This document shows, one piece after another, positions 2,653 through 59,533 of a stretch of 64,000 bases of DNA (within the stretch, counting starts at the first letter, position 1; each line of letters starts with the position of its first letter). Source of the DNA: a phage; the sequence record PZ445523.1; one strand, written 5' to 3'. The notes beneath the pieces were generated by a model. It did no database searches, had not been told where the DNA came from, and saw only the letters and a list, made by a program, of their open reading frames with translations. The position numbers and the translations under genes were made by a program.

Positions 2653-4277
<1,625 letters not shown>

Positions 4278-54808: not shown

Positions 54809-57754
54809 ATGGCTACTTTAAAACAAATACAATTTAAAAGAAGCAAAACCGCAGGTCAACGTCCTGCTGCTTCAGTATTAGCCGAAGGTGAATTGGCTAT
54901 AAACTTAAAAGATAAAACAATTTTCACAAAAGATGACTCAGGTAGTGTTATAGAATTAGGTTTAAAATATGGAGGAACAATTGATGGTTCTTTAACTGTT
55001 AATGGAAGCATAATTGGAAATTTAACAGGTAACGCTGCAACTGCAACGAAATTAAAAACAGCACGAAAAATTAATGGTATATCCTTTGATGGGTCAAAAG
55101 ATATCACGCTAACTCCATCTGACATAAATGTCAATAGCACAACGTTTATAAAAAATAACGGCGAATTACCTGTTGATGCTAATTTAGATGAGTATGGGCC
55201 TGTTGAAGAATATCTTGGAGTTTGGTCGAAAGCAACTTCAACCAACGCTCAACCAGCAAATAAATTTCCAGAAGAAAATGCTGTAGGTGTTCTAGAAGTA
55301 TTTGTGGCCGGTCAATTTGCTGGTACTCAGAGATATACAACTAGATACGGAAATGTTTATATTCGTTCCTTGACTGCTACATGGAACGGAGTAAACGGTC
55401 CGTGGAGTGCGTGGCGAAATATTCAATCTGGTACTCGTCCACTGTCAACAACGATTGATCTTAATGATCTAGGAGGCGCTGAACACCTTGGTTTGTGGCG
55501 AAATAGTTCAAATTCCATTGCTACCTTTGACAGAAATTTCCCAGAAGAAGGATCGTCCGCTCAAGGACTTTTAGAAGTATATGAAGGTGGAAACTATTCT
55601 CGCACACAGAGATATACGACCAGATTTGGTGTTGTTTATACTCGTTGTCTTGCTGCTGCGTGGGATGCTTCTGCGCCTAAATGGGGACCTTGGCAACAAG
55701 TCGGTAATGTCACACCGGCGACTTTCTATGACGGAGATCTGAATGATTTTAAAATTCCTGGGTTATATAATATTTTAGGCACTGATGCCGTTATTAACTG
55801 TCCTACCGGTGAAGGTTTGCCGACTGTTATTGTTGGTTTGCTGGAAGTTAAACAGCGCGCTTCTGGCGGTGCTATTTTCCAAAAATTTACTACTGCCGGA
55901 ACGGGTTCAACTACTCGCGATCGTATTTTTGAGCGTGCATATACTGGTGGTGCGTGGGGTGCATGGAACGAAGTATATACATCTTATTCCCTGCCAATTA
56001 CTTTGGGTATGGGTGGTATTAAAGCTCAATTAGCGGAGTTAGATTGGCAAACATTTGATTTTGTTCCTGGTAGTATGTTTAGCGTTCCTTTGAACAAAAT
56101 AAAGAACATGCCAGCAAATATGAATTGGGGCACGATTGATGGAAACCTGGTTATGTTTTCCGTTGGTCCTAGCGAACACACTGGCACAGGACGTACTGTT
56201 CAGATTTGGCGCGGCACCGTATCCCAGACAAACTACCGTTATTTTGTCGTTCGTGTATTTGGTAATTCAGGAAATAGAACTTGCACAGTTCGCCGTGTTG
56301 TTCTTGAAGACGGATCACATACTTGGACTGCTCAACAAAACTTTAGGGGATTGCTGAATATCACTGCTGCTGTTAATCTTGGTGCTAATCAGAAAATTTC
56401 ACTTGCTCCAGGAGCATATATTCAAGCCCCTGCTAGCGGTTCTGGTTCTAATACTTACGCAAATCAGAATACTACCATTGCACCATTATATCAGGCCATT
56501 GACGATTCAAATAAAAACCAGTTTGCACCAATTGTTAAACAGAAAAACACTGTAAGTAATATCACCTTTGCCACTGGTATGGCTATAGGTACATCCGAAT
56601 ATAAGATCATTGCTCAGGGTGATTTATCCGCTAATGGAACAGCAGATGGGTTAAAACAATGGACTTTCATGCCGTCAGGTTATTTTAAATCTCCAGGGCG
56701 TGTATATGTTGGTGATGCGTTCCTTAATACAGATGGTAATATTGCCGGTTCAATCTGGAAGAAATATAACAATGCGACAAATTTAGATGCTGCCTTGAAT
56801 ACTCGCGTAGGTAAAGGCGGTGATACGATGACAGGTCGGTTAACAATCAATGCACCTAATGATTCTATTGTATTATCAACAACTGCTAGTAATTCTTTGT
56901 ATATTCGCGGTGACATAGACGGGACTGGTAACTGGTATATTGGCAAGGGTGGTGCTGATAATTCGCTAGCATTTTATAGCTATGCTTCTCAGGCGGCAGT
57001 ACATATCACAAACAATGGTGAGATTGCGTTAAACCCGCAAAATACCGCAATGGTTAACGTTAACCGCGACCGTGTACACATTAACGGTTCTGGATGGATT
57101 GCTAGACAACCGGGTGATTGGGGCAACCAATGGCGAGTAGAAGCTCCATTATTCGTTGATCATGGTTATGTTGGTCAAGATAGTTATTATCCTATTCTTA
57201 AAGCAAGAAGCGTTATAACCAATCAAGGATATAGCACCGCTGTTGACTTTGGTATGCGTCGTATTCCATCACAGTGGGGGCAAGCAATCATTCGTGTCGG
57301 ATCCACGGAGGCTTCTCCTGATGCTGGACACCCACAAGCTGTGTTTGAATTCCATCATGATGGATTCTTTTATACACCAGGAAATGGTAGCTTTAGCGAT
57401 GTGTATATTCGTTCTGACTCCCGTCTCAAGATTAATAAAGAAGAATTAGAATATGGAGCAGTCGAAAAAGTTTGCCGACTGAAAGTTTATATTTACGATA
57501 AAGTTAAGTCTATTAAAGACCGTAGTGTTATTAAACGTGAAGTTGGTATTATTGCTCAGGACCTTGAAAAGGAATTACCGGAAGCTGTATCTAAAGTTGA
57601 AGTTGATGGATCTGATGTTCTGACAATTTCTAACTCTGCTGTGAATGCTCTTTTAATTAAGGCTATTCAGGAAATGAGTGAAGAAATTAAAGAATTGAAA
57701 ACGCCTCTCTTTACTAAAATTGCTCGCAAAATTAGTAAATATTTTAAATTCTAA
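54809..57754 (+). CDS. 37: long tail fibre distal subunit
   Basis: 981-aa ORF with N-terminal similarity to gp36-type repeats; shorter than the 1026 aa of T4 gp37. Confidence 0.85.
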
Positions 57755-57790
57755 CAACAAGGGGGAAATGCCCCCTTTGGAGTATAAATT

Positions 57791-58573
57791 ATGGCAGTAG
57801 TTGGAGTTCCTGGCTGGATTGGAAGTTCAGCCGTAAATGAAACGGGTCAGCGCTGGATGAGTCAAGCGGCTGGTCAATTAAGATTGGGTGTTCCTTGCTG
57901 GATGAGTCAATTTGCAGGTCGCTCACGAGAAATTATTCACACGCTTGGAGCAGACCATAACTTCAATGGTCAATGGTTCCGAGATAGATGTTTTGAGGCA
58001 GGTAGTGCACCTATAGTGTTTAATATTACAGGTGATTTAGTATCATATTCTAAAGATGTTCCTTTATTCTTCATGTACGGAGATACACCAAATGAATATG
58101 TTCAGTTAAATATACATGGCGTAACGATGTATGGTCGTGGAGGTAATGGTGGTAGCAATAGTCCTGGCTCAGCTGGGGGTCATTGTATTCAAAACGATAT
58201 TGGTGGGAGACTAAGAATTAATAATGGCGGAGCTATTGCAGGCGGCGGTGGCGGCGGTGGCGGCGGATATTATTCTCCTTTTTCACAAATGAGATTGACC
58301 TTTGGCGGTGGTGGCGGTCGTCCTTTTGGTGCGCCAGGCGGATCTATTGATATGCAATCAGGCGCGACTGGTGGTACTATTTCTTCACCTGGCTCAGGAT
58401 CCGTGAATGGTATCTATAATGGTGGAAACGGTGGTGAAGTAGGTTCCGCGGGAGGTAGATGCAATATTCGCGGTCAAGGATCTGAATATGATGGCGGTGC
58501 TGCTGGTTATGCTGTCATAGGGTCCGCTCCAACATGGCAAAATGTTGGAGCAATATATGGTCCAAGAGTATAA
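57791..58573 (+). CDS. 38: tail fibre adhesin gp38 (T2-type, glycine-rich motifs)
   Basis: 260-aa [28 protein letters not shown]... with several poly-Gly motifs in the C-terminal half. Confidence 0.8.
58241..58267 (+). repeat. tandem 9-nt Gly-codon repeat (GGCGGCGGT x3) inside gene 38
   Basis: ggcggcggtggcggcggtggcggcgga encodes a GGGGGGGGG run. Confidence 0.8.
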
Positions 58574-58603
58574 TGTGAATAAATACCCTTAAAAGGAGGG
58601 TCT

Positions 58604-59260
58604 ATGGCAGCACCTAGAATATCATTTTCGCCCTCTGATATTCTATTTGGTGTTCTAGATCGCTTGTTCAAAGATAATGCTACCGGGAAAGTTCTTGCTT
58701 CCCGGGTAGCTGTCGTAATTCTTTTGTTTATAATGGCGATTGTATGGTATAGGGGAGATAGTTTCTTTGAGTACTATAAGCAATCAAAGTATGAAACATA
58801 CAGTGAAATTATTGAAAAGGAAAGAAATGCACGCTTTGAATCTGTCGCCCTGGAACAACTCCAGATAGTTCATATATCATCTGAGGCAGACTTTAGTGCG
58901 GTGTATTCTTTCCGCCCTAAAAACTTAAACTATTTTGTTGATATTATAGCATACGAAGGAAAATTACCTTCAACAATAAGTGAAAAATCACTTGGAGGAT
59001 ATCCTGTCGATAAAACTATGGATGAATATACAGTTCATTTAAATGGACGTCATTATTATTCCAGCTCAAAATTTGCTTTTTTACCAACTAAAAAGCCTAC
59101 TCCCGAAATAAACTACATGTACAGTTGTCCATATTTTAATTTGGATAATATCTATGCTGGAACGATAACCATGTACTGGTATAGAAATGATCATATAAGT
59201 AATGACCGCCTTGAATCAATATGTGCTCAGGCGGCCAGAATATTAGGAAGGGCTAAATAA
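58604..59260 (+). CDS. t: holin T
   Basis: 218-aa ORF with single N-terminal TM segment and large periplasmic domain. Confidence 0.9.
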   Translation: MAAPRISFSPSDILFGVLDRLFKDNATGKVLASRVAVVILLFIMAIVWYRGDSFFEYYKQSKYETYSEIIEKERNARFESVALEQLQIVHISSEADFSAVYSFRPKNLNYFVDIIAYEGKLPSTISEKSLGGYPVDKTMDEYTVHLNGRHYYSSSKFAFLPTKKPTPEINYMYSCPYFNLDNIYAGTITMYWYRNDHISNDRLESICAQAARILGRAK

Positions 59261-59533
59261 TTATTTGTTCGTATACATCTCTAGATATCGATATACACCC
59301 TCAAAACCCTCGTTGAATTCGTCGATGAGGGTTTTCTTATCTTCTTGAGTTAATTCAGAAACAATTTTACGGAATGAATTCTGATTTAACTTTCTACCTT
59401 CATGCGTTACTCCAATCTCATTCAGAAATGCAATAAAATTAGCACGATTTTCAACAATATCTTCTCTGGAAAATTTAATCAAAATAGATGCAACAGTAAT
59501 AATTTCACGAACTGTATCAATGTTTTTATTCAT
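59261..59533 (-). CDS. asiA: anti-sigma-70 factor AsiA
   Basis: 90-aa ORF MNKNIDTVREIITVASILIKFSRED... Confidence 0.9.
   Translation of the reverse strand: MNKNIDTVREIITVASILIKFSREDIVENRANFIAFLNEIGVTHEGRKLNQNSFRKIVSELTQEDKKTLIDEFNEGFEGVYRYLEMYTNK

Follow-up and report, generated by a model that had tools for sequence, protein, structure and literature searches.

A T6-like gp38 adhesin gene whose glycine-codon tracts flank the family's most variable segment

Results

The window analyzed here is a 64,000-nucleotide stretch of phage DNA (PZ445523.1). Its gene 38 is an ATG-initiated open reading frame encoding 260 amino acids, and is preceded by GGAG at positions 57779-57782. The gene order is g34 (1289 aa), g35 (371 aa), g36 (216 aa), g37 (981 aa), g38 (260 aa) and t (218 aa), and the same g37-g38-t order was found in phages PYps47T, D5505 and KarlGJung. 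Two Pfam profiles matched the gene product, both passing their curated cut-offs: Gp38_N (PF21721) over residues 1-42 (E = 1.2e-20; 73.6 bits versus a cut-off of 25) and GP38 (PF05268) over residues 47-260 (E = 1.4e-71; 241.2 bits versus a cut-off of 25), the latter covering profile positions 1-218 of 218. The reading frame, the Pfam matches and the synteny together bear out a preliminary description of this DNA, which had placed a 260-residue gp38 adhesin at this locus. Coordinates of the genes and of the gp38 segments are collected in Table 1.

The spacer between g37 and g38 contains a G+C-rich hairpin (-15.8 kcal/mol, z = -2.0 by RNA folding) with a terminator-like match on the minus strand, and the record of phage fPS-65 annotates this hairpin as a minus-strand terminator. 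A promoter and terminator scan gave weak consensus matches only, and an Rfam scan of positions 57000-59500 found no family at the gathering score. Two terminator-like matches inside the g38 reading frame, one of them over its block of five glycine codons, were dismissed as G+C-rich coding sequence.

Table 1. Genes and gp38 segments at the locus, with positions in the window. GRM, glycine-rich motif; HVS, hypervariable segment.
Feature	Positions	Strand	Evidence
Gene 37, distal long-tail-fiber subunit, 981 aa	54809..57754	+	ORF, Pfam
G+C-rich hairpin A GGGGG AAATG CCCCC T, g37-g38 spacer	57760..57776		RNA fold
Gene 38, T6-like receptor-recognizing adhesin gp38	57791..58573	+	Pfam, PDB matches, AF2 model, Foldseek
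N-terminal attachment domain, residues 1-42, predicted to dock on the gp37 trimer tip	57791..57916	+	Pfam PF21721
GRM1 GRGGNGG, residues 115-121	58133..58153	+	mean top-residue frequency 0.94, 71 homologues
GRM2 Gly9 tract GGCGGCGGT GGCGGCGGT GGCGGCGGA, residues 151-159	58241..58267	+	sequence, Tandem Repeats Finder, S16 alignment
HVS2, residues 160-171, 12 residues, distal loop	58268..58303	+	entropy, model
GRM3, residues 172-184, 13 residues, begins with Gly5 block	58304..58342	+	sequence, homologue comparison
HVS3, residues 185-210; BamHI GGATCC at 58397-58402	58343..58420	+	entropy
GRM4, residues 211-222, 12 residues; SacII CCGCGG at 58446-58451	58421..58456	+	homologue comparison
HVS4, residues 223-234, 12 residues	58457..58492	+	entropy
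GRM5 GGAAGYAV, residues 235-242	58493..58516	+	homologue comparison
Gene t, holin, 218 aa, downstream neighbor fixing synteny	58604..59260	+	Pfam Phage_holin_T, E 3e-117

Across the surrounding 24 kb of the window, identity is 97.2% to Yersinia phage PST and 95-97% to many Tequatrovirus genomes. Gene 38 itself shares 98.9% nucleotide identity with its counterpart in HEMP5, 98.7% with KEP10 and 97.6% with RB14, and at the protein level gp38 is 99% identical to that of HEMP5 (two residues differ), 98% to that of KarlGJung and 95% to that of T6. We regard gene 38 as very probably an ordinary, near-identical Tequatrovirus member of the well-studied gp38 adhesin family. Its N-terminal domain is of the T6 type as defined by Trojet 2011. 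The preliminary description had called the adhesin T2-type; the protein is of the T2/T6 kind, and its T6-type N-terminal domain, together with its identity to gp38 of T6 (95%) and of the Tsx-dependent KarlGJung (98%), makes 'T6-like' the more exact label. The same description correctly gave gp37 as 981 residues and took this length as consistent with a T2-like tip, an argument that is weak alone; a g37 of 2946 nt is also present in PYps47T and PYps32T. Pfam places a Peptidase_S74 intramolecular chaperone domain in gp37 at residues 869-927 (nt 57413-57589), and this domain combined with an adhesin-type gp38 is better evidence for a T2/T6-like tip than the length of gp37.

We numbered the glycine-rich motifs and hypervariable segments of gp38 after Trojet 2011, anchoring them by the BamHI site in HVS3 and the SacII site in GRM4, which mark the same two segments of T6 in that study. 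Glycine makes up 47 of the 126 residues across positions 115-240. Among 71 homologues, motif entropies lay between 0.3 and 1.0 bits (GRM1 0.31, GRM2 0.47, GRM3 0.48 and GRM5 0.80), whereas those of the variable segments were 1.87 (HVS1), 2.42 (HVS2), 1.69 (HVS3) and 2.21 (HVS4), bearing out the earlier proposal that glycine-rich motifs separate variable segments. HVS2, which varies more than any other segment in the family, is flanked by the two Gly tracts that are conserved best. In the attachment domain W9 is the same in all 71 sequences, and W22 and W37 are conserved in ≥90% of them; the S16 structure describes the role of three conserved Trp residues that plug into the gp37 trimer.

An AlphaFold2 model computed from the 71 homologues (mean pLDDT 88.8; pTM 0.79) predicts a beta-helix plus polyglycine-II sandwich for gp38, with helices at residues 10-18 and 23-29 and a short turn at 38-40 in the attachment domain. 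Foldseek matched the model to PP01 gp38 (9v85_C; E = 1.7e-25; target-normalized TM 0.87; rmsd 2.2 Å) and to S16 gp38 (6f45_D; E = 2.5e-23; TM 0.73-0.76), and returned no significant fold match besides the structures of these two proteins. A PDB sequence search likewise retrieved the receptor-binding domain of PP01 gp38 (9v85; E = 3e-79) and S16 gp38 (6f45_D; E = 8e-50). Both proteins (6F45 chain D for S16, 9V85 for PP01) share with the model the attachment domain, the beta-helix, the polyglycine-II sandwich, a long central poly-Gly helix and variable distal loops; S16 gp38 binds Salmonella OmpC and PP01 gp38 binds O157 OmpC, and their loops differ from those of the window protein. By analogy, residues 1-42 would dock on gp37 and the middle and C-terminal end would form the beta-helix, while residues ~115-242 would make up the polyglycine-II sandwich, its motifs serving as structural helices and its hypervariable segments as distal, receptor-contacting loops.

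A glycine-rich core with protruding variable loops was proposed by Drexler 1989 and confirmed by the S16 structure, whose authors describe ten glycine-rich motifs arranged in a three-layer lattice of polyglycine-II helices. In their account helix 3, formed by the central GRM 3 (151-GGGGGGGG-158), is the long helix at the center, its hydrogen-bond network being saturated, and the hypervariable segments supply the distal loops, the proposed site of receptor binding. The structure and mutagenesis of PP01 gp38 agree with this layout, loop-B directly after the poly-Gly run being essential for adsorption. HMMER aligned G151-159 of the window protein with G151-158 of S16, a Gly9 in place of a Gly8, and HVS2 is the equivalent of PP01 loop-B, modelled here as a beta-hairpin (strands 159-164 and 167-172). 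The Gly9 tract is thus predicted to be the central polyglycine-II helix and is mainly a conserved structural element.

Several relatives still carry the database name 'distal long tail fiber assembly catalyst', which would fit a gp38 of the T4 type acting as assembly chaperone outside the virion, with receptor binding left to gp37. We give this identity essentially no credence. The only Pfam matches of gp38 are to the adhesin families PF05268 and PF21721, and in its modelled fold it matches the adhesins of S16 and PP01; gp37, for its part, ends in an S74 chaperone domain that is predicted to be cleavable, and matched no PDB sequence at E ≤ 1e-3. Pfam, the PDB sequence matches and Foldseek all refute the T4-type assignment.

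At the DNA level, positions 58241-58267 had been described as three identical 9-mers. Read in frame, they do encode nine consecutive glycines (Gly151-Gly159), spelled as GGC GGC GGT twice and then GGC GGC GGA, the third unit therefore ending in GGA and not GGT. Tandem Repeats Finder reported a period of 9 and 2.9 copies with a 100% match over 58241-58266 (score 52). The second glycine block, earlier put at about 58301-58320, is present, its exact position being 58304-58318 (GGC GGT GGT GGC GGT; residues 172-176).

Any run of nine glycines is of necessity a (GGN)9 stretch, and the predicted role of the Gly9 run as the longest, central helix explains both why such a stretch is required and why there is strong conservation of its length. 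For the additional 9-nt periodicity five codons have to match at lag 3, which has p ~0.005 under the Gly codon usage of the window. GGC fills six of the nine tract codons, versus 13.9% in the window's other long open reading frames (p = 4e-4). Close relatives encode the nine glycines with other codons, with PYps47T using five GGC followed by GGT GGC GGC GGA, and D5505 using three GGC GGT pairs followed by GGC GGC GGA; thus the protein sequence is conserved and the DNA repeat unit is not. The window GRM2 has a 17-nt exact self-homology at lag 9, which makes gains or losses of 9 nt the likeliest event here, and the window's GRM2 and GRM3 have only 8 nt in common, compared with 14 nt in the gene backgrounds that gave rise to duplications. 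When both strands of the tract were folded as single-stranded DNA, with HVS2 included or left out, no structure exceeded that of shuffled controls (z = -0.9, +1.85, -0.3 and +1.2), leaving hairpin-driven instability of the tract unsupported.

The length of GRM2 varied among 171 distinct full-length relatives, with nine glycines in 103, eight in 38, seven in 14, six in nine, five in two and four in two, the runs other than Gly9 belonging largely to other clades. The block before Arg-Pro was Gly5 in 161 of 164 scored relatives, and the gene was 783 nt long in nearly all of the ~100 phage records listed. A pattern scan of IMG/VR for length variants found three loci, all with the canonical 28-nt gap; in JGI metagenomes all four close matches were canonical and three further short matches were due to chance, and in GTDB genomes chance matches only were found, in unrelated bacteria. 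The preliminary description had termed the repeat slippage-prone. In-frame expansion, contraction, duplication and deletion do occur at the Gly tracts of relatives, but with Gly9 in 103 of 171 the term overstates the case. Relatives do show length polymorphism at the repeat, and the segments between the motifs are not invariant.

In a set of 74 distinct sequences sharing at least 85% identity with the window protein, we counted seven tract-linked events. Simple one-residue indels elsewhere in these sequences numbered only two (T6 +G109 and PYps15T -N210), and the remainder consisted of swaps of whole modules, a gap of 15 residues near the N-terminus of P0146 and, in the divergent phage M1, several small indels. 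In PYps47T a stretch of 54 nt, starting inside GRM2 and extending through HVS2, is duplicated in tandem, with the junction inside GGCGGCGGTGGCGG, 14 nt that GRM2 and GRM3 have in common there. Phage vB_YepM_ZN18 (IMG/VR locus L006; hereafter ZN18) carries a 51-nt duplication of HVS2 with its junction inside a different 14-nt microhomology, GGCGGTGGCGGCGG; because of this different junction, and because its gene is only ~93% identical to that of PYps47T, the ZN18 duplication is a second, independent event. A literature search on ZN18 found nothing. Smaller changes were a gain of 9 nt inside the tract of PYps32T, giving Gly10-Val-Gly, the loss of one codon of the Gly5 block in D5505 (-3 nt), and a Gly7 run in the assembly-derived proteins P0146 and P0148. 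In the assembly-derived genes P0022, P0023 and P0025, GRM2 is fused to GRM3 and HVS2 is gone, the reciprocal product of the duplications, and loci L021 and L022 show the same fusion with loss of HVS2, L021 together with a gp37 of only 477 aa.

The HVS2-deletion variants stem from automatic Logan assemblies, and T6 phages deleted for HVS1-3 or GRM2-4 could not be recovered (Trojet 2011); it is therefore possible that the assemblies lacking HVS2 are artefacts or do not function. Both points could be extended to all of the length variants, by taking the tract as purely structural and the variants as errors of sequencing or assembly in G+C-rich, low-complexity DNA, or as dead-end, defective genomes. 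Consistent with this, one deletion variant has a collapsed gp37, and the RefSeq gene of HP3 has a frameshift located precisely at the tract, whereas that of HP3.1 is intact. According to the HP3 paper, HP3 and HP3.1 differ by two SNPs elsewhere only, so we rejected this pair as an experimental tract change and regard the HP3 frameshift as a probable sequence error. PYps47T, PYps32T, ZN18 and D5505, however, have finished genomes, obtained from plaque-purified isolates by three separate groups, and the insertion in PYps47T was remarked on by its own authors. Moreover, the duplications total less than 110 nt each and could be spanned by single reads, their junctions are in frame and lie in microhomologies, and De Bruijn collapse requires repeats longer than k, whereas the homologies here are 8-14 nt. 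We therefore consider a wholly artefactual origin of the variants improbable. In-frame rearrangement products exist in viable natural relatives.

PYps47T and PYps32T are plaque-forming isolates from the same zoo survey, and over record positions 40001-90000 they are identical apart from the gp38 tract. One genome is exactly 45 nt longer than the other, from which we infer that the identity extends over the ~116 kb beyond this interval. The PYps32T allele equals the PYps47T allele minus 45 nt, plus one GGC-to-GTC substitution, and the endpoints of the 45-nt deletion lie within a microhomology of ~9 nt. Two to three events within ~100 nt thus separate the pair, compared with none in ~49.9 kb. 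The host ranges of the two phages also differ, one comprising 52 and the other 87 of 128 Y. pseudotuberculosis strains. This difference coincides with the tract difference, which may have a causal role in it.

The three GRM2-linked insertions seen in isolates, those of PYps47T, PYps32T and ZN18, are all in phages of Y. pseudotuberculosis. They represent two independent lineages only, and a link to Yersinia hosts is a suggestive hypothesis.

The clustering of events between PYps47T and PYps32T would also fit a dedicated contingency locus, in which the tandem Gly-codon repeat is kept up at the DNA level for frequent and reversible receptor switching. The over-use of GGC, the 17-nt exact repeat at lag 9 in the window allele, the two to three events in ~100 nt between phages otherwise identical over 50 kb and the confinement of the GRM2-linked insertions to Y. 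pseudotuberculosis phages speak for such a locus, but we find it very improbable, as the repeat is short (2.9 copies of the 9-mer) and its register is not conserved, relatives' codons differing synonymously. Copy number is kept in most relatives, tract changes occur in a handful of the 74 T6-like sequences, and the need of the protein for a polyglycine-II helix explains the tract. There is also no on/off frameshift logic, the lone frameshifted record (HP3) looking like a sequence error. The tract is most likely an incidental hotspot and not a programmed switch, and its mutability is real but rare.

As for the receptor, the nucleoside channel Tsx is the most likely E. coli receptor predicted for the window gp38, because the protein is 98% identical to adhesins of phages experimentally shown to need Tsx. 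KarlGJung, Paracelsus and WilhelmHis are reported as Tsx-dependent (Maffei 2021), and in Trojet 2011 nearly all Tsx binders had one common set of four variable segments. The window gp38 carries this set, and differs from KarlGJung gp38 at four positions (V15, G194, S199 and D234). T6 and the T6-like Tsx binders (KarlGJung/Bas37, Paracelsus, WilhelmHis, HEMP5, KEP10, RB14, PST and fPS-65) have gp38 proteins of 260-261 aa, like that of the window, and share with it the T6-type N-terminal domain, the four hypervariable segments and the Gly9 and Gly5 tracts; they differ from it by point differences and other codon spelling in the tract, and PST additionally in HVS2. PST, with few changes in HVS2 (PFPRIRL) and HVS3, was reported to have gained OmpA recognition (Trojet 2011). 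The gp38 proteins of fPS-65 and KarlGJung are identical, yet fPS-65-resistant mutants of Y. pseudotuberculosis map to LPS inner-core genes, and the receptor call is therefore host-dependent.

Discussion

In T2/T6-like phages, which find wide use in phage therapy and diagnostics, host range is determined mainly by gp38. The comparative results leave the understanding of this family unchanged. Membership of the window allele in the Tsx group illustrates that a receptor can be predicted from sequence.

The mutability that the preliminary description suggested for the glycine tracts receives qualitative support from the relatives. Its idea that glycine-rich motifs might promote recombination is not new: in the proposal of Tetart 1998 (Tetart, Desplats & Krisch) they are hotspots of recombination through which modules are shuffled, and Trojet 2011 tested such shuffling by crosses. 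The published recombination between motifs is an exchange between phages, whereas the events described here are unequal events within one gene, involving GRM2 and GRM3. In the gp38 literature we examined, we did not find a description of intragenic, microhomology-mediated duplication or deletion of HVS2, nor of the isogenic pair. The duplications and deletions are features of relatives and not of the window.

How the rearrangements arise, and what they do to host range, can be stated as a proposal. As a by-product of what the protein needs, the GGC-rich GRM2 and GRM3 would act as short direct DNA repeats, and in-frame changes would result from slippage during replication, or from unequal recombination mediated by microhomology, inside one tract or between the two. 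Gly codons would be gained or lost in this way, or the intervening HVS2 loop would be duplicated or deleted.

A more far-reaching reading, which we put forward tentatively and consider rather doubtful as a whole, is that the Gly tracts flanking HVS2 (loop-B) form a recurrent hotspot of in-frame rearrangement that is used to retune host range. On this reading loop-B was duplicated independently at least twice, both times in phages isolated on Y. pseudotuberculosis; the change would be partly reversible in another register, as from PYps47T to PYps32T, leaving a longer tract; and the window allele, with its perfect repeat, would be predisposed to gain or lose three glycines. If true, loop-B rearrangement would be an intragenic gp38 analogue of the domain duplications of T4 gp37, where duplication of a small adhesin domain extends host range (Tetart et al. 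1996). The two cases are alike in that a receptor-recognition segment at the T-even fiber tip is duplicated in tandem and in frame between short conserved flanking motifs; they involve different proteins and motifs, and the effect on host range is one shown for T4 gp37 only.

In practical terms, the HVS2 site is a natural design point for loop engineering, and GRM2/GRM3 rearrangement provides a cheap marker for microevolution in phage stocks. The Gly-tract site is also one at which assemblies and annotations err, as in the HP3 record.

Codon bias and a frameshifted record in the glycine tracts

Codon usage in the two glycine tracts of g38 was strongly skewed, with GGC over-used at 8 of 14 codons (p = 2e-4) relative to the 13.9% of glycine codons that it represents across the other long ORFs of the window. 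The same GGC bias was present in the glycine tracts of relatives. Candidate causes include homogenisation by gene conversion or slippage, selection for linkers that serve inter-phage recombination, and an effect on translation.

RefSeq annotates gp38 of Escherichia phage HP3 (YP_010278715.1) at 187 aa. When it was set against positions 58241-58345 of the window, its sequence beyond eight glycines proved to be the DNA further downstream read in the +2 frame, and the HP3 record therefore contains a frameshift within the glycine tract. Its derivative HP3.1 encodes an intact gp38 of 260 aa and, according to the published paper, differs from HP3 by only two SNPs, both located elsewhere. The HP3 frameshift is probably a sequencing error at this G+C-rich tract.

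Closely related phages and apparent receptors

The Yersinia phages PYps47T and PYps32T showed no differences over 50 kb outside the gp38 glycine tract and HVS2, the variable loop between the tracts (record positions 40001-90000 compared), and their genome totals are exactly 45 nt apart. Despite this near-identity over 50 kb, NCBI taxonomy splits them between two species, Tequatrovirus sf21 and Tequatrovirus cm8.

The gp38 proteins of the E. coli phage KarlGJung and the Yersinia phage fPS-65 are identical (cluster member P0122). KarlGJung is reported to depend on Tsx, and resistance to fPS-65 maps to LPS inner-core heptose genes; one adhesin is thus tied to differing apparent receptors by host.

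A hairpin in the g37-g38 spacer

The spacer upstream of g38 contains a G+C-rich hairpin (-15.8 kcal/mol, z -2.0), with the gp37 stop codon immediately 5' of it and the GGAG of g38 3 nt further on. A terminator scan gave a terminator-like score on the minus strand, where the fPS-65 record annotates a terminator at the equivalent hairpin. Candidate roles are a transcript-end stabiliser, a weak terminator or a translational coupling element.

Coordinates of the features described
Feature	Position	Context	Sequence or basis
Spacer hairpin	window 57760-57776	g37-g38 spacer	A-GGGGG-AAATG-CCCCC-T; RNA fold
Two Gly tracts	window 58241-58318	g38	
L021 genes	1533-2966 and 3001-3717	T-even	Logan SRR30543803 contig, 29.5 kb

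Atypical database relatives

The Logan-assembled contig L021 pairs a gp37 of merely 477 aa with a gp38 that lacks HVS2; either the repeats of gp37 were collapsed during assembly or the fibre is strongly shortened. The closest protein cluster is represented by a protein labelled 'Bacillus cereus' (P0001, PJZ22119.1) that lies on a 171.5-kb contig, which suggests a bacterial assembly contaminated by a T-even phage. Another protein, labelled E. coli (P0034, 303 aa), combines Peptidase_S74 and GP38 domains and is possibly a g37/g38 fusion or frameshift.
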